A DNA stretch of 35,493 bases, taken from a virus (lineage: Duplodnaviria > Heunggongvirae > Uroviricota > Caudoviricetes). The notes below the pieces were generated by a model. It saw only the letters and a program-made list of their open reading frames with translations. It had not been told where the DNA came from and did not search any database. Location of the stretch: IMG/VR virus record IMGVR_UViG_2529293246_000006. One strand, written 5' to 3'. Shown here in pieces: positions 3,442 to 35,493 of this stretch (its first letter is position 1; the number at the start of each line of letters is the position of its first letter). The translations under genes were made by a program, and so were the position numbers.

Positions 3442-4608
3442 TTAAACTCCTTTGACGACGTCGGCGTTGACCTGCGGGACCCCGATTTCAGCAGCCAGAT
3501 TCATGGCGGCTATCACCAGGTTACTGACGGCCAGCGGATACAGCAGGCTGACCATGCTTTTACGGCTACTACCCAGATTGCTCAGACGGGCGCGGATGGC
3601 TTCCACTGCGCTGGCGTCCATGATGTCGGCCAGCTGCTTACCGGCACGTTGCAGTTTGAACGTCAGAAACTCTTCGAGGCTGTTGTCCAGCGGCAGCAAT
3701 TCAACCAACTCGCAGCGCTGGACGACCTCACGGACTTCCATGTTGCGTTCGGACAGTTTGTCTGCCAGTTCAGGCTGGCCAATCAGCACGATGGACAGCA
3801 GTTTTTTGAAGCCGGACTCCAGTTCGAAGAAGCGTTTAAGGTGCTTCAGCGTCGGAATGGGAAGGCTGTGGGCCTCCTCAATCACCAGAACGTGGCTGAA
3901 ACCCGCCTGACTGCTGTCCTTCAGGACTCGGTGCAACTGGCGGAAGCGGGCGTCCTGGCTGCGTTTGATACTCTCCAGCGGCGCGATGGTGCTGATGATG
4001 GCCTCGGCGATAGCTGCCGCCTTCAGGGTTTTGCCCTTCACGTCGTTGTCTTCCATGGCGATGATGTATGGCTCGATTACAATCACCGGCGCGTTCTCGC
4101 GGTTGACGCGTTCAATCAGGTCGCGGCGCAGCGTGGATTTACCCGCACCGGACTCGCCGATAACCGCCAGAAAGCCACCATGGCGGGCGGTCTGGAACAG
4201 CGCCTCACGCACGTAGCGGATATCCGGCGTGGTGAACACATCGTCCGCGCCCTGCATGGCTTCATCGGCGAACGGATCACGGAAAAGGCCAAACGCTTTT
4301 TTGGTTGCTGGAAATAACACCTGCTTTTTGAGTAACATGTTCTCTTCCTCACTGAGGTTGGTTTTATCGGTAGTACCCGCTGTACGGGGCGTGACAGCGC
4401 CCTGTGCAGCATCAAAACTTTTCACTGTATCAATCCCCTTACTTTCCAGATACAACGCCAGACGCTGGCGTACCTCTTCGGGGCTGGTGCGTGGCCACTC
4501 GTTATGGTTCACAATCTGGGCCAGCGTGGCCTCGGAAACGGCGACGGCTCTTGCCACCACCGCCTGCGGGATGCGGGCCTCTTTCAGTTGTTGCTTCAGT
4601 ACCAGCAT
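3442..4608 (-). CDS. transposition ATPase (MuB-like AAA+ target DNA activator)
   Basis: 388 aa. Walker A GESGAGKST and Walker B VLVIEEAH. Directly downstream of the transposase. Strong GAGGAGG Shine-Dalgarno before the ATG at 4608. Confidence 0.85.
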   Translation of the reverse strand: MLVLKQQLKEARIPQAVVARAVAVSEATLAQIVNHNEWPRTSPEEVRQRLALYLESKGIDTVKSFDAAQGAVTPRTAGTTDKTNLSEEENMLLKKQVLFPATKKAFGLFRDPFADEAMQGADDVFTTPDIRYVREALFQTARHGGFLAVIGESGAGKSTLRRDLIERVNRENAPVIVIEPYIIAMEDNDVKGKTLKAAAIAEAIISTIAPLESIKRSQDARFRQLHRVLKDSSQAGFSHVLVIEEAHSLPIPTLKHLKRFFELESGFKKLLSIVLIGQPELADKLSERNMEVREVVQRCELVELLPLDNSLEEFLTFKLQRAGKQLADIMDASAVEAIRARLSNLGSSRKSMVSLLYPLAVSNLVIAAMNLAAEIGVPQVNADVVKGV

Positions 4609-4618
4609 GCCTTCCTCC

Positions 4619-6388
4619 TCAGTTACCGTTAACGATGCTGATAACGCTGTTGCGGGCCGGAGTGGTCAGGGTAACCATCACCTCATCCAGCGCGGCTTCA
4701 GGTACGCCATCCGGGTACTGCGCCGTTAACTGGCGGTAATGTTCCGGCGTCCAGATATGGCCGTTAGCGCCAAACTTCTCGCGCAGGGCTTTCGCCGCCT
4801 CCACATGGGTCAGCGGACGCTGCTCAATACGCGGCCCGCGCACGTCTGAAGCCTGACCGCGCTTCGGCATATAGGCCGGAAGCGTGGTGTCGTCGATATG
4901 TTTGTACGGGTCAAGTCGCCCGCCGAACGGCAGCGCCTTCGCCTTGCGTGCAGCAGCTGCATCGGTGGCGTTATCGGTGCCCGTAACCAGCTCTTCGATT
5001 TCTTTTGCCGCCGTCTGCGCCGGGGTCTCCGGCAGGGCTTTGTAGTTTTCGCCAAATACCGCCGCGTTTTCGGCAAAGCCGAACTCGTTCTTTCTGACCT
5101 CCTCGACCAGGAAGAACGTCTCGTGACCGTCCTCACCGGTCAGCACCACCTGCGCCACATCGCTGCGCCACGGGTTACGGGTAATCATCAGTTTTTCGCC
5201 GACCAGTACGCCCGGTACCGTCGAAACGTCAAACTCATTGCCCCGGAACGAGACGCGCAGTTTTGGTGTGACCTTACGGAGTTCCGGTGCGGCCACCGCC
5301 AGTTCGCGGCAAACCTCAACGGATGGCGCTTTTTTCAGCTGGTCAGCAGTAATCTTCAGCCAGATATCCGTGCGGGTTTTACCGTGGCGGCTGTGGACCG
5401 CCGTGGCGTTAAAGTGGCTGCGCCATTTCACCGCCAGTGCGTTCAGTTCGTCCAGGCTATGAACCGGCTGGAATTTGAGACCCGGCTCCAGTTTACGTTC
5501 GATAATGTCACGGGCCTTTTCCACCTGCCCGGTGGCGCGGGCGTTATGCGGCTTGTGCGCTATCAGATTGATGCCCAGCGAGCGGCACATGTTTTTCGTC
5601 ATGCCAGCGGTGTTCGCCGAACCGGGATCAAGGTAGAGTATTTTCGGCACGCCGTGCAGCACGTCCGCGCCGCCGCGCTCCTGCATGGCGTTGATAAGCA
5701 CAGAACAGAGGTTCTCACCAGATTCCGCACCCATCACGTACTCAACGTAAATCCAGCCGCTGGTATGGTCGGTAATCTCGTAACTCCACACGCGGTCACT
5801 GGCGATGCGGGCGATGTTGGCAGGCTTGTTCTTGTAGAACTTCGAGCTGTCCATCACCTGCAACCCTTTATGGCCGTTGCTCAGGTAGTAAAGCGTACAA
5901 AGTGAGGCATCAATCTCCCAGACGTGATTGGGATGCAGGCTGGCCATCTCGGACGACGGGGCCGGTGCGTCAAGCTGTTCCGGGTGCAGACCATAGTTCC
6001 GCAGGGCGCGGCTGATGGTATCCTCGGACAGCGGGAAAAACTCGCCTGTGGCCTCGTCCGTTCTGCCAGCAGTGATAAAGCCGTTTGACCGCAGGGTCTC
6101 CACCGCATCCGCGATGGAATACAGGCGCTTACCGTTCTTACGGGTGGCCTCGCGCAGCGTGGCAGATATCAGCGCGGCTTCGTCGCGGCTCAGGGCACTG
6201 CGCCCGGCATCGGCGCGTTTTTTACGTTTGTCAGTCACTGATACCTCCTTCAGCTTGCGCAGCAGGGTGGCGCGGGAAATGCCCAGTTCGGCGCAGGCGG
6301 CATCATATATCGCACCACGCTTACCATGCCCCGCGTCACGTGCCGCGCGGGCAACATAAACCAGTCGTTCAGTCAGGGCGGCACTCAT
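4619..6388 (-). CDS. DDE transposase (Mu/BcepMu-type, integrase-core fold)
   Basis: 589 aa. N-terminal HTH region, candidate catalytic Asp residues in HVWEIDAS and YLDPGSAN, followed by a conserved Glu region. Sits just upstream of the ATPase as in transposable phages. Confidence 0.85.
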   Translation of the reverse strand: MSAALTERLVYVARAARDAGHGKRGAIYDAACAELGISRATLLRKLKEVSVTDKRKKRADAGRSALSRDEAALISATLREATRKNGKRLYSIADAVETLRSNGFITAGRTDEATGEFFPLSEDTISRALRNYGLHPEQLDAPAPSSEMASLHPNHVWEIDASLCTLYYLSNGHKGLQVMDSSKFYKNKPANIARIASDRVWSYEITDHTSGWIYVEYVMGAESGENLCSVLINAMQERGGADVLHGVPKILYLDPGSANTAGMTKNMCRSLGINLIAHKPHNARATGQVEKARDIIERKLEPGLKFQPVHSLDELNALAVKWRSHFNATAVHSRHGKTRTDIWLKITADQLKKAPSVEVCRELAVAAPELRKVTPKLRVSFRGNEFDVSTVPGVLVGEKLMITRNPWRSDVAQVVLTGEDGHETFFLVEEVRKNEFGFAENAAVFGENYKALPETPAQTAAKEIEELVTGTDNATDAAAARKAKALPFGGRLDPYKHIDDTTLPAYMPKRGQASDVRGPRIEQRPLTHVEAAKALREKFGANGHIWTPEHYRQLTAQYPDGVPEAALDEVMVTLTTPARNSVISIVNGN

Positions 6389-28515: not shown

Positions 28516-29027
28516 TGGCAGGCGTCACCCGTCAGGTCGGTACGGTCAGCGCCGTCGATGCCGACAAGGTTCAGGCCCGCGTTCGTCTGCCTGAGTGCGA
28601 TAACCTGCGCACTAACTGGCTTAACGTACTGCAGCGCAACACCCAGGATAACAAGGATTACTGGCTACCTGACGTGGGGGAGCAGGTTGAGGTGCTGCTC
28701 GATGCCAACGGCGAGGATGGTGTCATTCTGGGCGCGGTGTATTCAGACGTCGATAAGCCACCGTTCAGCGACAAAAACGTCCGGGGCACGAAATACGCGG
28801 ATGGCGCAGAGTTCAGCTATAACCGCGCGACCCATACGCTGACGGTCAAAGGTGGTATCGAGCGCGTAGTAATCGAGGTTGCGGTAGGTATCAGCCTGAA
28901 GGGGAAAACCATTGATTTGACCGCTGACACCACCACGGTGAACGGCAACCTTGAAATCAACGGCAATGCCCACTCCACAGGCAGCATGCTCTCTGACGGC
29001 CAGAACTCCAATCATCACTCCCACTGA
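28515..29027 (+). CDS. baseplate spike protein (P2 gpV-like)
   Basis: 170 aa; OB-fold-like N-terminus and His-rich C-terminus (NSNHHSH). Position precedes the W/J/I genes. Confidence 0.7.
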   Translation: MAGVTRQVGTVSAVDADKVQARVRLPECDNLRTNWLNVLQRNTQDNKDYWLPDVGEQVEVLLDANGEDGVILGAVYSDVDKPPFSDKNVRGTKYADGAEFSYNRATHTLTVKGGIERVVIEVAVGISLKGKTIDLTADTTTVNGNLEINGNAHSTGSMLSDGQNSNHHSH

Positions 29028-29081
29028 CCTTCTTAAACGCCTTTAATATCGGCGTTCCCGCACAGGGGCAATACTGCCCCC

Positions 29082-29429
29082 ATGAAAACTACTTCCGTAT
29101 TCTGGCAACCGGCCCTGCAGGCCCCTGGCGAAATCGTCCGGGGGCTGGATGATATCTGGCAGGCCATTCAAATCATCCTGCGAACTCCTCGCGGCAGCGA
29201 CCCGCATCGCCCGGAGTTCGGCAGCAACCTGCATCTTTATATCGACTGGCCCATCGACCGGGCTATCCCACATGTGGTGCGCGAGTCCGTTGATGCCATC
29301 CGGCGCTGGGAGCCTCGCTGCCAGCTTATGTCGGTTAAACCCGCCGTCGACGGTGAACATCTTACGCTCCGGGTGAGCTGGAAAGGCTCTGACGGACAGC
29401 CCCGGACTCAGGAGCTTTTATGGCGCTGA
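29082..29429 (+). CDS. baseplate protein (P2 gpW / GP25-like)
   Basis: 115 aa directly upstream of the baseplate J gene. Confidence 0.7.
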   Translation: MKTTSVFWQPALQAPGEIVRGLDDIWQAIQIILRTPRGSDPHRPEFGSNLHLYIDWPIDRAIPHVVRESVDAIRRWEPRCQLMSVKPAVDGEHLTLRVSWKGSDGQPRTQELLWR

Positions 29430-30523
29430 CAGAACCCGATTTTATTGAACGCGATGCCGACAAAATCACGGCTGAAATGATTGCTCAGTACGAAGCCGCA
29501 ACCGGCAAGACGCTGTACCCCGCCCAGGCTGAGCGCCTGTTGATTGACCTGTGGGCATACCGCGAAATGCTGGTCAGGGTAGCGGCGCAGGAAGCGGCCA
29601 AACAGAATCTGGTCGCCTTTGCCCGTGAGCCGATGATTGATTACCTCGGTGAACTGGTCGGTGTTTACCGCCTTGCCGCGCAGCCTGCCACCACCACTCT
29701 CCAGTTCTCCGTGGATGAGGCACTGGCCATTGATGTGCTGATTCCGGCAGGCACCCGCGTCAGCGCTTCCGACAGCATTATTTTTGCCACCGATACGGAC
29801 GTGGTGCTGAAAGCCGGATTGCTTCTGGTCAATGCCACGGCCACCTGTACCGAACCGGGAGCCGCTGGCAATGGCTGGCAACCTGCGCAGGTCAGTCAGT
29901 TGCTCGATGAGATTGATAACGTCGACCTGCAGGTGACCAATCTGATGGCAAGTTCTGGCGGTTCAGAGCAGGAAGACAATGACAGGCTCCGCGAGCGTAT
30001 CAAACTGGCCCCGGAGTCATTCACCAACGCCGGAAGCCGTATGGCATACCGCTTTCATGCCATGCAGGCCCATCCCAACATCGTCGACGTCGCTGTGCTC
30101 TCCCCGGTTCCCGGCACCGTAGAACTGTATCCGCTGCTCAGTACCGGCCTGCCGGACGACAGCATCCTCACTCTGGTAGAGAGCTTCTGCTCAGACGAAA
30201 AAGTCAGGCCGCTCACTGATACCGTGCGGGCTAAAACGCCCGTGCAGGTGGATTACACCATAGATGCCCAGATCACCATCTACCGCAATCAGGATGCCAA
30301 CTCGGTAAAAGACGAGGCAAACAACGCCATCCAGAACTGGGTCGCAGCCCGAAGAACCAAGCTGGGCGTGGATATCGTCCCCGGACAAATTAACGCGGTG
30401 TTGACTGTCAGCGGCGTTTACCAGGTTGAACTACCCGGCCTTGAACTTGTTGTTCTTGCAGAGAATGAGTGGGCTAATTGTACCGCCATCAACGTAACTA
30501 TCACGGGAGTTGTCGATGGCTGA
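29420..30523 (+). CDS. baseplate protein J (P2 gpJ-like)
   Basis: 367 aa; position and size fit. Confidence 0.75.
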   Translation: MALTEPDFIERDADKITAEMIAQYEAATGKTLYPAQAERLLIDLWAYREMLVRVAAQEAAKQNLVAFAREPMIDYLGELVGVYRLAAQPATTTLQFSVDEALAIDVLIPAGTRVSASDSIIFATDTDVVLKAGLLLVNATATCTEPGAAGNGWQPAQVSQLLDEIDNVDLQVTNLMASSGGSEQEDNDRLRERIKLAPESFTNAGSRMAYRFHAMQAHPNIVDVAVLSPVPGTVELYPLLSTGLPDDSILTLVESFCSDEKVRPLTDTVRAKTPVQVDYTIDAQITIYRNQDANSVKDEANNAIQNWVAARRTKLGVDIVPGQINAVLTVSGVYQVELPGLELVVLAENEWANCTAINVTITGVVDG

Positions 30524-31094
30524 GACGCTAAAACTCCCGCCAGCACTTGAGGGTGATATCAGCTTCAGGGCACTGGGCAATTTGGCCGGAAGACTGGACA
30601 GCATCGACCTGAGCGTGTTGATGGTCTACCTCGTCGATATTGTCGACAGCTCTGCACTGCCATGGCTGGGCGAGCAGTTCTCGCTGTTCGGTGACGGCTG
30701 GGAACTGGCGGAGTCAGACGATGTACGTCGCACGCTCATCAAATCCGCCATCGAGTTGCACCGCTACAAAGGGACGCCGTGGTCAATCCGGGAAATTATC
30801 CGCCGTTTTGGCTTCGGTGAGGTGGATCTGATTGAAGGCACTGGCCAGATCGGATACGACGGCAAACACAGTTATAACGGGCTTTTTGTCCACGGCGATG
30901 CGGAAGCCTGGGCGGTCTATCGCGTCATCCTTAAACAGCCCATCACTAACGATCAGGCAGCACTGTTACGTCAGACGCTCGCTGCCTTTGCTCCGGCCCG
31001 CTGCCATCTGGCGAGTCTGGAGTATCAGTCTGTCGCCATTCGCTACAACAACACCGTCAACTATGACGGCAGCTATAACCACGGGAGCAGTTAA
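30516..31094 (+). CDS. tail protein I (P2 gpI-like)
   Basis: ORF 30510..31094 trimmed to the ATG at 30516 after a GGGAG Shine-Dalgarno; overlaps the J stop. Confidence 0.65.
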   Translation: MAETLKLPPALEGDISFRALGNLAGRLDSIDLSVLMVYLVDIVDSSALPWLGEQFSLFGDGWELAESDDVRRTLIKSAIELHRYKGTPWSIREIIRRFGFGEVDLIEGTGQIGYDGKHSYNGLFVHGDAEAWAVYRVILKQPITNDQAALLRQTLAAFAPARCHLASLEYQSVAIRYNNTVNYDGSYNHGSS

Positions 31095-31096
31095 TT

Positions 31097-32071
31097 ATGG
31101 CAAACCTACCTGAAACCCCGCAGTGGGAAGACGGCATCTACCAGATTGAGGTCTCCGACCCCGTACTGGGCGGGCCTGACGGAATTTCTAACCGTCAGGC
31201 TAAACAGCTGGCCAGCCGTACTTCATACCTGAAACAACAGGTTGAAAAAGGCGGTTCAGATCTCGCGAAACACATCGCAGCGGCCGACCCGCATACCCAG
31301 TACGCGACGAAGGCCAGCCCAACATTCACGGGTACGCCAACGGCCCCCACGCCTGCAGCTAATGACAATAGCAAAAAGCTGGTGACGACAGAATTTGTGG
31401 CGAGGGCGATTGCTGCGCTTGCAGGTACAGCCCCAGAAACACTGGATACGCTGAAAGAGCTGGCTGATGCCCTTGGCAACGATCCAAACTTTGCGACCAC
31501 AGTGCTGAACAAGCTGGCGGAGAAACTGGCCAAAGACCAGAACGGTGCGGATATTCCCGATAAGGCAGCCTTTCTTCAAAACCTTCGTTTGGGAGCAGGT
31601 GCTCCAGCTATCGGTATTCCGTTCTTCTGGCCTTCAGCTGCGATGCCTAATACCGTCATAGATGAATGGGCAGATATGGTGTTTCTGAAATTCAACGGTG
31701 CGACATTTTCGGCAACAACTTATCCGAAGCTAGCTAAGGTGATCCCCAGTCTGACGCTAACCGAGGCTCGGGGTGAGTTTCCGCGCATTTGGGATGATGG
31801 GCGTGGCGTGGATAACGGGCGTGCATTGTTGAGTATACAGGGTGATGCCATCAGAAATATCACCGGTAATGTCGGCGTTTATTCAGATGGTTTATTAACT
31901 TATGCTTCTGGTGTTTTTTCTCTTGGGTCTTCATCATCGAATAAAAATAACCCAATAGCAGGGAGCGGGGCAAATGCTTACGCCACTTTTGATGCTTCAA
32001 AAGTCGTACCAACAGCTTCTGAAAACCGTCCTCGTAACATCGCTTTTAACTTCCTTGTGAGAGCAAAGTAA
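31097..32071 (+). CDS. tail fibre protein (constant N-terminal part 31097-31583 plus invertible variable C-terminal part)
   Basis: 324 aa. The left inversion site (31571-31596) lies inside the gene. The C-terminal part is AT-rich compared with the N-terminal part. Confidence 0.75.
   Translation: MANLPETPQWEDGIYQIEVSDPVLGGPDGISNRQAKQLASRTSYLKQQVEKGGSDLAKHIAAADPHTQYATKASPTFTGTPTAPTPAANDNSKKLVTTEFVARAIAALAGTAPETLDTLKELADALGNDPNFATTVLNKLAEKLAKDQNGADIPDKAAFLQNLRLGAGAPAIGIPFFWPSAAMPNTVIDEWADMVFLKFNGATFSATTYPKLAKVIPSLTLTEARGEFPRIWDDGRGVDNGRALLSIQGDAIRNITGNVGVYSDGLLTYASGVFSLGSSSSNKNNPIAGSGANAYATFDASKVVPTASENRPRNIAFNFLVRAK
31571..31596. repeat. left inversion site (gix/hix-like), core TT at 31584-31585
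   Basis: TTTCTTCAAAACC-TT-CGTTTGGGAGC is an inverted copy of the site at 33431-33456 and resembles the Hin hixL site TTCTTGAAAACCAAGGTTTTTGATAA as I recall it. Confidence 0.7.
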
Positions 32072-32682
32072 TGAAACCTATTTTTAATGAAAATGGACTG
32101 GCAACTGAGGCGGGCGATATTCGCTGCTTTTACTATGACTCTTTTACTTATGAATATACGGGCTGGTCTGACGAACATATTAACGTTGGTGTAAGCATGC
32201 CGGGGAATTCGACCGATATTGATCCGGGTGATGAGGTGTCAGGCATGGTCGCTGTATTTAACTGTGATGCATGGAATCAACAGGAAGACCACCGCGGCGA
32301 AACCGTATTTTCTACCGCTGATAGTAGCCATGTAACCGTTGATTACATCGGTGAAATCAGAGACGGCTTCACAACAGCAGCTCCTGCCACACCTTACGAT
32401 AAGTGGGATGGGGAGAAGTGGATAACGGATAGTGAAGCGCAGCACACAGCCAACATCGCCGCTGCTGAAGTAGACAAACAGTCCAAAATTGACCAGGCCA
32501 ATGAATACATCAACAGTAAGCAGTGGCCCGGCAAAGCCGCTTTGGGCCGCCTAAGTGACGCGGAGAAAGAGCAATATAATTTGTGGCTGGATTATCTCGA
32601 TGCGCTGGAAGCTGTAGACACCTCCAGTGCTCCAGATATTAACTGGCCTACTCAGCCTGATAATCGGGAGCAGGCTGGGTAA
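32071..32682 (+). CDS. tail fibre assembly chaperone (Mu U / P2 G-like)
   Basis: 203 aa; ATGA overlap with the fibre gene. Lies inside the invertible segment and is AT-rich. Confidence 0.65.
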   Translation: MKPIFNENGLATEAGDIRCFYYDSFTYEYTGWSDEHINVGVSMPGNSTDIDPGDEVSGMVAVFNCDAWNQQEDHRGETVFSTADSSHVTVDYIGEIRDGFTTAAPATPYDKWDGEKWITDSEAQHTANIAAAEVDKQSKIDQANEYINSKQWPGKAALGRLSDAEKEQYNLWLDYLDALEAVDTSSAPDINWPTQPDNREQAG

Positions 32683-32839
32683 ATGCGGCGCCATCGTATA
32701 AATACCCCGACTCAACGTCATCAGGACAATTAACCCAAACCAACGAGGGGTGGAAACGCCCCTCCGGATCTACATCTACGGTTTCTTCAACGCGAAAGTT
32801 TTCTTTGCCTTCAATTTTTTTAATTCTTGCCCATGTCAT
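32648..32839 (-). CDS. small putative tail-fibre assembly protein for the alternative fibre (U'-like)
   Basis: 63 aa, convergent with and overlapping the 3' end of the plus-strand assembly gene; follows the alternative fibre cassette on the minus strand. Confidence 0.4.
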   Translation of the reverse strand: MTWARIKKIEGKENFRVEETVDVDPEGRFHPSLVWVNCPDDVESGYLYDGAAFTQPAPDYQAE

Positions 32840-32843
32840 TTAA

Positions 32844-33442
32844 TCACCACTCAATAATCACAATACCATTTTTACCGGAGCCGGATTTATTACTACTGTT
32901 AGCAGCAATCCCACCACCACCGCCCCCATAACCAGGCGCATCCAGACCCATCCCTGTAGATCCTCGGCCTCCGGGGCCGCCACCGTTGCCGCCGCAATTT
33001 GCCGAGTTGGCTGAACCGTCATCCCCCCAACCCAACCCCTGATTAACGTCTCCGCCAAAACCGGCTCCCGACGAACCACCGGATGTTGATGTGCCGCCAT
33101 ACCCATACTGACCACCAGTCGCGGAGAGATAAGAACCAAAAGAAGATGACCCACCGGATGCGCCATTACCTGTAGTTACGCCAGCACCAGCAGAGCCAAC
33201 GGTTACCGTAACGCTTGAAACGTCTGTGAGATCGAGAAGCAATTTCGAATATCCGCCACCGCCGCCACCGCCCCCGCGCTTTGTTGTATCGGTAGTCGAC
33301 CCGCCAGACGCTCCACCACCAATTACTGTCACCTGGCATTTTCGCCCTTGTTGGAGTGCCTCAGGAACGTTCCAGTTAGATACTCCAGGGGTGTTGAAAA
33401 CAACTATGTTTTGCAGGCCAAAGGCCGATGCTCCTAAACCAA
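32844..33442 (-). CDS. alternative tail-fibre C-terminal variable domain (Sv'-like), promoterless cassette, Gly-rich
   Basis: Minus-strand ORF reads ...FSKNLGLGASAFGLQNIV... across the right inversion site, in frame with the constant part (FLQNL) after inversion. Contains long Gly runs (GGGGGGGG, GGGGGG). Confidence 0.55.
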
Positions 33443-33456
33443 GGTTTTTGGAAAAG
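33431..33456. repeat. right inversion site (gix/hix-like), core AA at 33441-33442
   Basis: CTCCTAAACC-AA-GGTTTTTGGAAAAG is the inverted partner of the site at 31571-31596; 61 bp upstream of the invertase start. Confidence 0.7.
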
Positions 33457-33516
33457 CAGTTACACATAGCGAAATCTGCAAAAATCCTCCTACCGCGACA
33501 TAGAGGAGGAAAATTG

Positions 33517-34098
33517 ATGGCCGTCATTGGTTATATCCGCGTATCAACAATCGACCAGAACAGCGATTTACAGCGTAATGCGCTCACAAGCGCAAACTGT
33601 GACCGCATTTTTGAAGACCGTATGAGCGGAAAAGTTGCCAGCCGCCCCGGTCTGAAACGCGCTTTAAAGTGCGTTAATAGCGGAGACACCCTGGTCGTGT
33701 GGAAACTGGACAGGCTGGGGCGCAGCGTTAAGAACCTGATCGCACTGATATCAGAATTACATGAACGCGGTGCCCACTTCCGCTCTTTAACAGACAGTAT
33801 TGATACCAGCACTGCCATGGGGCGCTTCTTTTTCCATGTGATGTCAGCACTGGCGGAGATGGAACGTGAGCTGATCGTCGAACGAACACTGGCCGGGTTG
33901 GCAGCAGCCAGAGCACAGGGACGCATAGGTGGAAGGCCCAATGCATTAAAACCGCATGAGCGGGAACAGATTGGGAGACTATTGGCCAGGGGACATACTC
34001 GCCAGCAACTGGCCATAATCTACGGAGTGGGATTATCGACGCTCTATCGGTATTTTCCGGTAGATAGTCAGAGGAAGGATGAAGCGGTAGGATTGTAA
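33517..34098 (+). CDS. gin: site-specific serine DNA invertase (Gin/Hin/Pin/Cin family)
   Basis: 193 aa. MAVIGYIRVSTIDQNSDLQRNAL...GDTLVVWKLDRLGRS...SLTDSIDTS..GRFFFHVMSALAEMERELIVERT closely matches the Gin/Hin sequences I recall, including the catalytic Ser in VSTIDQ. GAGGAGGA Shine-Dalgarno. Confidence 0.9.
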   Translation: MAVIGYIRVSTIDQNSDLQRNALTSANCDRIFEDRMSGKVASRPGLKRALKCVNSGDTLVVWKLDRLGRSVKNLIALISELHERGAHFRSLTDSIDTSTAMGRFFFHVMSALAEMERELIVERTLAGLAAARAQGRIGGRPNALKPHEREQIGRLLARGHTRQQLAIIYGVGLSTLYRYFPVDSQRKDEAVGL

Positions 34099-34132
34099 TT
34101 CTTTTGCAAATATTGAAACGCCGCAGCGATGC

Positions 34133-34176
34133 CATTTATCTCACGGAAATGGGCGCATTTATCGCGCGGCGCATCA
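34133..34176. repeat. prophage right terminus with two transposase-binding-like repeats; phage DNA ends ...CA at 34176
   Basis: CATTTATC at 34133-34140 and 34156-34163. Read inward from the end, the terminus is TGATGCGCCGCGCGATAAATGCG..., resembling the Mu R end TGAAGCGGCGCACGAAAAACGCG...CGATAAATGCG as I recall it. Confidence 0.65.
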
Positions 34177-35493
34177 TTTCATGGTTACGCCGGTGATTAA
34201 ACCAATCACCGCCACTACCATCAGGTAATAGGCAGGCATCATCAGATTCTGCGAGCTTTCGACCAGCCAGGCCGCCAGTGTTGGCGTCAGACCGGCAACC
34301 AGCACCGAAATATTAAATGCCGCCGCCAGCGCGCTGTAACGGATATGCGTCGGGAACATCGCTGGCAAGGTAGAAGCCATAACGCCCGTAAAGCAGTTAA
34401 GGATCACCGCCAGCATCAGTAACCCGGCAAAAATCAGGCCGATGACGTTACTGTTAATCAGAATAAACGCCGGGATCGCCAACACAAACAGGGCAACACT
34501 ACCAAGTAGCACAAACGGACGACGGCCAAAACGGTCACTCAGCAAGCCCATCACCGGCTGGACAAACAGCATACCGATCATAATGGCGATAATAATCAGC
34601 ACCCCGTGGTCTTCGGAGTAATGCAGGTTATGCGACAAATAACTCGGCATATAGGTCAGCAACATGTAGTAAGTCACGTTGGTGGCAATTACCAGACCAA
34701 TACATGTCAACAGGCTGCGCCAGTGTTTGGTGGCAATCTCTTTAAACGAGACTTTCGGGCCATCCTGCAAACCTTCGCGGTCGCCCTGTTCCAGTTTATC
34801 GACATGCTGCTGGAACGCCGGAGTTTCTTCCAGCGCATGGCGCAGGTAAAGCCCGATAATCCCTAACGGCAGAGCAATAAAGAACGGAATACGCCAGCCC
34901 CAGTCGAGGAAGTTCGCTTCGCCGACAATGGTCGAAATTAACACCACTACGCCAGCACCCAGCACAAACCCGGCAATAGAACCAAAGTCCAGCCAGCTGC
35001 CCATAAAGCCACGTTTACGGTCAGGGGAGTATTCCGCAACAAATATCGACGCCCCGGTATATTCACCGCCGACCGAGAAACCTTGTGCCATCTTACAGAT
35101 CAACAGCAGAATCGGTGCCCAAATACCAATCGTGTCGTAGGACGGTATTAAGCCAATACAGAACGTACTGATCGACATAATCACAATAGTGATAGCGAGG
35201 ATCTTCTGGCGACCATATTTATCGCCCAACATACCAAAGAAGAGTCCGCCAAGCGGTCGAATCAGAAAGGGAACGGAGAACGTGGCAAGTGCAGCAACCA
35301 TCTGCACGCTGGGGTCAGCCCCCGGGAAAAAAACTTTACCTAATGCGTAAGCAACAAAACCATAAACACCAAAATCAAACCATTCCATTGCATTACCCAG
35401 TGATGCTGCGGTAATGGCTTTACGCAGTTTACCGTCATCAATAATGGTGACATCACGAAGGGTAATCGGTTTTACTTTTTTCCTTTTCAGCAT
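34174..35493 (-). CDS. proP: proline/glycine-betaine MFS transporter ProP, 3'-truncated by the prophage insertion (439 of ~500 codons)
   Basis: Protein starts MLKRKKVKPITLRDVTIIDDGKLRKAITAASLGNAMEWFDFGVYGFVAYALGKVFFPG..., matching E. coli ProP from memory. The frame ends ...GVTMK and then a TGA formed by the phage terminal TGA at 34174-34176. The C-terminal domain is missing. Confidence 0.8.
   Translation of the reverse strand: MLKRKKVKPITLRDVTIIDDGKLRKAITAASLGNAMEWFDFGVYGFVAYALGKVFFPGADPSVQMVAALATFSVPFLIRPLGGLFFGMLGDKYGRQKILAITIVIMSISTFCIGLIPSYDTIGIWAPILLLICKMAQGFSVGGEYTGASIFVAEYSPDRKRGFMGSWLDFGSIAGFVLGAGVVVLISTIVGEANFLDWGWRIPFFIALPLGIIGLYLRHALEETPAFQQHVDKLEQGDREGLQDGPKVSFKEIATKHWRSLLTCIGLVIATNVTYYMLLTYMPSYLSHNLHYSEDHGVLIIIAIMIGMLFVQPVMGLLSDRFGRRPFVLLGSVALFVLAIPAFILINSNVIGLIFAGLLMLAVILNCFTGVMASTLPAMFPTHIRYSALAAAFNISVLVAGLTPTLAAWLVESSQNLMMPAYYLMVVAVIGLITGVTMK

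Follow-up and report, generated by a model that had tools for sequence, protein, structure and literature searches.

The stretch of DNA analyzed here (IMG/VR record IMGVR_UViG_2529293246_000006, 35,493 nucleotides, hereafter the window) has the sequence of contig AJWR01000094.1 of assembly GCA_000264215.1 and holds, as judged from its genes and ends, a BcepMu/phiE255-like transposable prophage in Escherichia coli proP. The right end of this prophage very probably carries a working two-state inversion switch of the Hin/Gin/Cin/Pin type, in which a serine DNA invertase would exchange the tip of the tail fibre, together with the gene that follows it. Fibre-swapping inversions are a recognized class and are listed in large surveys (PMC9881135). 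A preprint on ST131 E. coli describes fibre DNA switches in an invertase-bearing prophage of the ‘Burkho_phiE255’ type (10.1101/2022.05.07.487787).

Two 26-base-pair (bp) sites in inverted orientation bound the segment (Table 1). Their register is the canonical 12+2+12 layout, which was verified on the sequence after direct reading and a repeat search. An earlier note on this DNA had both sites and their orientation right, with coordinates (31571-31596 and 33431-33456) that were off by 1-2 bp and two 26-mers whose registers differed by one base. Its half-site identities of 12/13 and 8/10 are not reproduced exactly; the left and right sites agree at 20 of 26 positions (outer half 8/12, core 2/2, inner half 10/12), and over 31578-31597 at 18 of 20. 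The TT core is non-palindromic and the same in both sites, and inversion is therefore the expected outcome. The note's remaining statements on the sites hold: the segment measures about 1.86 kb, the left site lies within the tail-fibre gene (at codon 163), and both sites resemble those of Hin and Gin in architecture and in their identical cores. The gix site of phage Mu, taken from NC_000929, reads TTATCCAAAACC TC GGTTTACAGGAA; against a palindromic consensus made from it both sites score 18/24, and the highest score at any other position of the window (35.5 kb) is 15, if the right site shifted by one base is left aside. A pattern derived from the sites themselves matches twice in the window and in none of 100 shuffles, a test that is circular. 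Shuffles and consensus scores together exclude a chance origin of the two sites.

A third site, or a multi-inversion system, was considered and ruled out, as just two sites in the window rise above background with the gix-derived consensus; exactly two sites make this a simple two-state switch. A half-site-like sequence, TTAACCCAAACC, occurs at 32730-32755 within the gene for a 63-residue protein and scores 14/24 on the same consensus. It is probably due to chance, because its other half has no match. About 76 bp separate the right-site centre from the invertase start codon downstream of it, and in 46 of 54 related loci the corresponding distance for the proximal site is 76-77 bp. Of the 35 related loci that have two sites, 32 have TT/AA cores, and site-to-site spacing across related loci ranges from 1.3 to 3.1 kb.

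Does the reading frame survive inversion? When 31584..33442 is inverted in silico, the fibre gene runs on as an unbroken open reading frame (ORF), as the earlier note had foreseen; it has 361 residues with its junction at residue 163, and the 63-residue ORF follows 4 nucleotides later. The same note read FLQNL at the junction in both forms; this holds for whichever fibre is expressed, and fails for the silent copy, which now reads FSKNL. A database search with the fused fibre recovered a natural E. coli protein (P0001) of 361 residues, 94% identical at 100% coverage. Contigs found through the 63-residue protein express the glycine-rich fibre, and the fused form is present in three loci designated L007, L011 and L012.

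The inverted state is also found in whole. Over 5,177 collinear bp (29000..34176), the loci L007 and L011, from Logan assemblies SRR29737921 and SRR27788997, are 100.0% identical to the inverted window, and they align with the window as found in three pieces of which the middle one is reversed. Their flanks differ from the window after 34176 and they are thus independent insertions of the same phage. In their hybrid junctions the crossover falls within 31578-31585 (AAAACCTT), core included, and it can be confined to this interval because the left and right half-sites differ. A sister prophage provides a second pair: in L003 (GCA_052603735.1) and L009 (ENA ERZ17858525) it occupies one insertion site by ygbA/mutS, flanks and host DNA are collinear and 99.93% identical, and a 1.6-kb segment is inverted at 99.8%. 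The earlier note had named two outcomes that would speak against a switch, the finding of one orientation only in deep reads and a frame break on inversion; the frame stays intact, and public assemblies contain the inverted form at 100% identity. As opposite orientations are 99.8-100.0% identical, the flips are very recent.

Table 1. Features of the switch and of the adjoining prophage end (positions in the window).
Feature	Position	Strand	Remarks
Constant 5' part of tail-fibre gene	31097..31583	+	Residues 1-162, common to both fibre forms
Left recombination site	31572-31597	+	TTCTTCAAAACC TT CGTTTGGGAGCA; core TT at 31584-31585; within fibre ORF
Invertible segment	31584..33442	.	1,859 bp, core to core; inversion of exactly this interval gives L007 and L011
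Variable fibre C-terminus, expressed in window orientation	31586..32071	+	Matches to solved fibre tips
Tail-fibre assembly protein, 203 residues	32071..32682	+	Partner of the plus tip; Pfam Caudo_TAP 1e-30; PHROG 105 7e-73
63-residue gene, probable minimal chaperone of glycine-rich tip	32648..32839	-	Convergent with assembly gene
Silent alternative fibre C-terminus, glycine-rich	32844..33440	-	198 residues plus stop; lacks its own 5' end and promoter
Right recombination site	33429-33454	-	Reverse complement TTTCCAAAAACC TT GGTTTAGGAGCA; core at 33441-33442
Serine DNA invertase, 193 residues	33517..34098	+	Pfam Resolvase 8e-47, HTH_7 7e-14; PHROG 125 7e-86
Predicted recombinational enhancer	33542..33604	.	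Fis-type sites 33542-33556 and 33590-33604, within invertase 5' coding region
Right end of transposable prophage	34099..34176	.	Ends ...GCATCA at 34176; sister-prophage identity stops there

The invertase belongs to the Gin family. It starts 61 bp past the right site, as previously stated (ATG at 33517, counted from the earlier end of that site), and its catalytic serine is read from the sequence in the motif YIRVSTIDQ. It is 66% identical to Mu Gin, and the Gin structures 4m6f and 3uj3 are its best solved relatives (E value about 1e-79; for 4m6f 1.7e-79 over residues 3-183). Hin's DNA-binding domain (1hcr) matches residues 139-187 with an E value of 4e-17.

A Fis-bound enhancer had been expected in the 5' part of this gene, and a candidate is present. 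A scan with the Fis consensus GNTYAAWWWTTRANC gave two Fis-type sites as the best matches in 33400-34100. Their centres are 48 bp apart, the nearer one is separated from the right-site centre by about 107 bp, and ATTTA and TAATG stand between them. Both of these motifs also lie between the two Fis sites of the Hin system, where the proximal Fis site is about 100 bp from hixL (PMC3798978). Synonymous codon diversity, a measure independent of the Fis consensus, was calculated for 71 distinct invertase genes from related loci. The 25-codon window of lowest diversity is codons 9-33, at 0.28 compared with 0.46 for codons 34-180 (Mann-Whitney p = 7e-5, indicative only, the 71 sequences being related to one another), and Ser10, Thr11 and Asp13, within the first Fis-type site, have zero synonymous variation. 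The predicted sites and the diversity minimum thus fall at the place expected of such an enhancer. A literature search for the enhancer string GATTTACAGCGTAATGCG returned no paper.

The fibre ORF (31097..32071) encodes 324 residues in the window orientation. Its constant part matches PHROG 3100 (tail fibre, 3e-116) and recurs at 99-100% identity as the N-terminus of many fibres with other C-termini (PF21882, PF07484 or PF21722). The stretch that spans the junction, residues 138-165, has a match in the solved fibre chain of Mu S/S', 8ju3_A (E value 6e-5). Further on, residues 172-322 match the solved short tail fibre 9cuy_c (E value 1e-15) and the T4 gp37 tip 2xgf (E value 1e-6). A search of NCBIfam named none of the fibre parts informatively. 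The plus orientation was described earlier as a fibre C-terminus with its assembly gene and the minus orientation as a glycine-rich alternative with a small chaperone, and both descriptions are supported: on the plus strand the tip is followed by the Caudo_TAP gene, and on the minus strand a Gly_rich_2 C-terminus is followed by the 63-residue gene, for which a chaperone-like fold is predicted and purifying selection is seen. Modelling supports a fold for each of the two cassettes.

A promoter and terminator scan of the segment found promoter-like sites no more often than chance and indicated none for the silent cassette; this chance-level count fits a silent cassette that has no promoter of its own. 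In the window orientation the silent frame continues without a stop across the right site as far as an ATG at 33527, just within the invertase gene on the opposite strand, giving a 227-residue ORF (32844-33527, minus strand) of which a 162-residue version was called in the source assembly. Gene callers may annotate this ORF, which most likely results from the arrangement of the locus and is no gene. A sequence search of the glycine-rich tip against the PDB returned spurious topoisomerase IV matches only.

The 63-residue ORF is a real gene under purifying selection, because its ratio of non-synonymous to synonymous substitution rates is 0.12-0.24 against homologs that are 63-78% identical. Only six clusters of homologs were found, 55-66 residues long, and in the loci found the gene always lies downstream of a Gly_rich_2 fibre. 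The protein has no match in Pfam, NCBIfam or PHROG, and a profile of the family had none in the PDB; relatives came from fold comparison alone, the model resembling a tail-fibre chaperone domain. Membership of Caudo_TAP (PF02413) was considered and rejected, as the length of the protein covers the N-terminal β-sandwich only. In the cyanophage Pam3 chaperone gp25 this β-sandwich spans residues 1-55, and residues 64-162 form a helical trimerizing domain (PMC9608196). By comparison of the models, the 63-residue protein would correspond to the fibre-binding β-sandwich domain alone of the Pam3 chaperone, and its fold and context suggest that it is probably the minimal chaperone of the glycine-rich tip. 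The 3' ends of the assembly gene and the 63-residue gene overlap convergently by 35 bp (32648-32682), an overlap present in every related locus whether the assembly gene encodes 149 or 203 residues.

In the proposed mechanism the invertase would bind both 26-bp sites, probably activated by Fis on the enhancer in its own 5' coding region, cut at the TT cores and invert the 1,859 bp between them. As the left site is at codon 163, the same 162-residue N-terminus always comes from the late transcript and is joined in frame to either tip. The window orientation would yield a tip like those of T4 gp37 and short tail fibres, then the Caudo_TAP assembly protein; the flipped orientation would yield a tip of the Pam3 gp24 kind, TNF-like and glycine-rich, then the 63-residue protein. 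A lysogen population would in this way release particles of two receptor specificities.

Several points weigh against this mechanism. Both orientations are documented between assemblies, and not as a mixture in a single culture of the strain. A simple promoter scan gave no promoter for the invertase, its counts being at chance level. Fis binding is a prediction from the sequence, and Fis dependence and the rate of switching are both matters that we infer. The 63-residue protein lacks the helical trimerizing domain of known fibre chaperones, and its role as a chaperone is proposed by analogy only. Finally, a difference in host range between the two tips is what we infer.

Could the switch mainly serve the lysogen? 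Inversion in the prophage state would then alter a product that affects the adsorption of other phages, as reported for PinQ and PinR of cryptic prophages (PMC12529663; bioRxiv 10.1101/2025.03.28.646004). This idea is compatible with a working switch, but as far as the window extends, the prophage has a transposase and a complete set of structural genes of Mu and P2 type, the identical copies at three insertion sites mean recent transposition or infection, and what is switched is a fibre tip with its assembly factor, encoded in a late operon; we consider it improbable that benefit to the lysogen is the main role. A little less probable still is a frozen relic, in which the sites and the invertase were inherited, flipping has ceased and the differences between strains record old events. 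Such a relic would fit the lack of read-level evidence for heterogeneity in this strain and the failure of the scan to give an invertase promoter. It is opposed by the fact that the two orientations show 100.0% identity across 5.2 kb among three independent insertions and are 99.8-99.9% identical in the sister prophage at its shared insertion site, as well as by an intact invertase ORF with its catalytic motif and a conserved enhancer region. The least probable explanation, with only a very slight chance of being correct, is that homologous recombination or cassette exchange between prophages, and not the invertase, produced the two orientations: it would account for acquisition of cassettes, and not for a reciprocal inversion with breakpoints exactly at the 2-bp core region, half-sites swapped reciprocally at both ends and 8 bp of perfect identity at the breakpoints, far below what efficient RecA recombination needs. 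In its favour are the 95-100% identity of the glycine-rich cassette across unrelated prophage backbones and the fibre-segment translocation between ST131 prophages reported in the preprint cited above (10.1101/2022.05.07.487787). A working invertase switch is the reading retained below.

The element that carries the switch encodes a Mu-type portal, a DDE (rve) transposase and an AAA ATPase. Its transposase (4619..6388, minus strand) shares 68-70% identity with the BcepMu and phiE255 enzymes, 99.8% with that of Escherichia phage Phi06_2974 B, 97.8% with that of Klebsiella phage KP12 and 93% with that of PhiKM. Within window positions 1-34176 the early genes are encoded on the minus strand and the late ones on the plus strand, and the 78 bp between the invertase stop codon and the phage end hold no com/mom. 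Mu proper (Muvirus) was ruled out as an assignment, given a transposase nearest to BcepMu/phiE255, early genes opposite to the late genes and no com/mom after the invertase. From 34177 on the DNA is 100% identical to E. coli proP. The proP ORF (34174-35493, minus strand) stops after 439 codons, at a stop supplied by the phage end, whereas E. coli ProP has 500 residues, and the prophage thus appears to be inserted in proP. The lysogen is then probably without a full-length ProP osmoprotectant transporter. Neither the missing 3' part of proP nor the left end of the prophage is covered by the window. Copies identical at 100% over at least 5.2 kb occur at three insertion sites in public assemblies, which suggests that the phage is currently active. 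A related prophage of E. coli AREA_C483, inserted in nrfA, has the same fibre and invertase layout with other cassettes.

As with the G segment of Mu and its invertase Gin (Sc-Sv-U / U'-S'v), a constant fibre part with a site inside the ORF is followed by two convergent cassettes of tip and assembly gene, a second site and the invertase gene; the 26-bp sites again have 12-bp half-sites around a 2-bp core, and Gin is the best solved relative of the enzyme. In contrast to Mu, the segment is 1.86 kb and not about 3 kb, the core is TT and not TC, the second cassette pairs a glycine-rich tip with a 63-residue partner where Mu has a full-length U', no com/mom follows the invertase and the backbone is BcepMu/phiE255-like. 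With BcepMu and phiE255 (Bcepmuvirus) the prophage shares the level of transposase identity given above, early genes divergent from the late genes, a Mu-type portal and a P2-type order of baseplate genes. The Hin system of Salmonella is alike in that its serine invertase gene holds the enhancer within the 5' coding region, with two Fis sites spaced by about 48 bp; the overall similarity of the enzyme to Hin is probably high. However, Hin flips a flagellin promoter and hin lies inside its segment, whereas here the invertase gene lies outside and a coding region is swapped. The C segment of P1 with Cin, the P segment of e14 with Pin and the fibre inversions of P2-like prophages belong to the same family of fibre-swapping switches. 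Pam3 gp24/gp25 (PDB 7YPX) differs in having a chaperone of 162 residues with a C-terminal helical trimerizing domain, which the 63-residue protein lacks, and Pam3 has no inversion system. PDB searches detected no sequence-level match between Pam3 gp24/gp25 and the tip and 63-residue protein of the window.

The glycine-rich cassette is found well beyond this phage. Positions 32487-33458 form one block, consisting of the right site, the glycine-rich tip, the 63-residue gene and, from the Caudo_TAP gene that converges on it, the final 55-65 codons, and the block is 95-100% identical in P2-like, BcepMu-like and other backbones (L003, L006, L008, L009, L013 and L015). Because this identity extends across unrelated prophage backbones, the cassette has been exchanged horizontally. 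The exchange joint lies within the conserved C-terminal domain of the assembly protein, and the invertases and other cassettes of the backbones that bear the block are far more diverged. In P2-like and other prophages the cassette of the window stands beside related invertases that are only about 67% identical to that of the window at the DNA level. Relatives with the cassette were retrieved by exact look-up of the 63-residue protein. A scan of genome contigs with the 198-residue tip gave 511 pattern matches, none confirmed by tblastn, and low-complexity composition is suspected. Complete E. coli genomes have the combination of cassettes in neither orientation, coverage reaching at most 45% and comprising the constant fibre part and the invertase only. 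Among viral contigs, the 80 loci retrieved by the invertase include no glycine-rich cassette; these loci were used for invertase and site statistics only.

A P2-like prophage of Budvicia aquatica without an invertase (L099, GCA_002591785.1) has a small gene between its fibre and sheath genes, the place that assembly gene G takes in P2. At 4001-4291 a 56-residue homolog of the 63-residue protein is followed by a 30-residue ORF fragment that matches Caudo_TAP. This fragment may be a remnant of a two-domain chaperone, hinting at the origin of the minimal form.

The switch itself is textbook biology and its presence adds little. It is nevertheless a verified natural case, in which public assemblies show exactly where the crossover falls (31578-31585) and one and the same phage genome occurs in both states at three insertion sites. 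One switch here pairs two very different tips, one like T4 gp37 and the other a polyglycine tip of the Pam3 gp24 type. The interest of the locus is modest and lies in the Pam3-like tip, the minimal partner protein and the spread of a near-identical cassette across prophage lineages. The chances seem about even that the 63-residue gene represents an undescribed family of minimal, stand-alone ‘tentacle’-domain chaperones for Pam3-type glycine-rich tips, and that tip, gene and flanking site together form a mobile receptor-binding cassette across unrelated prophage lineages, P2-like and BcepMu-like included. The glycine-rich tip and its 63-residue partner are a portable cassette common to several prophage lineages and, if the small protein suffices for folding, this cassette could retarget phages or tailocins.

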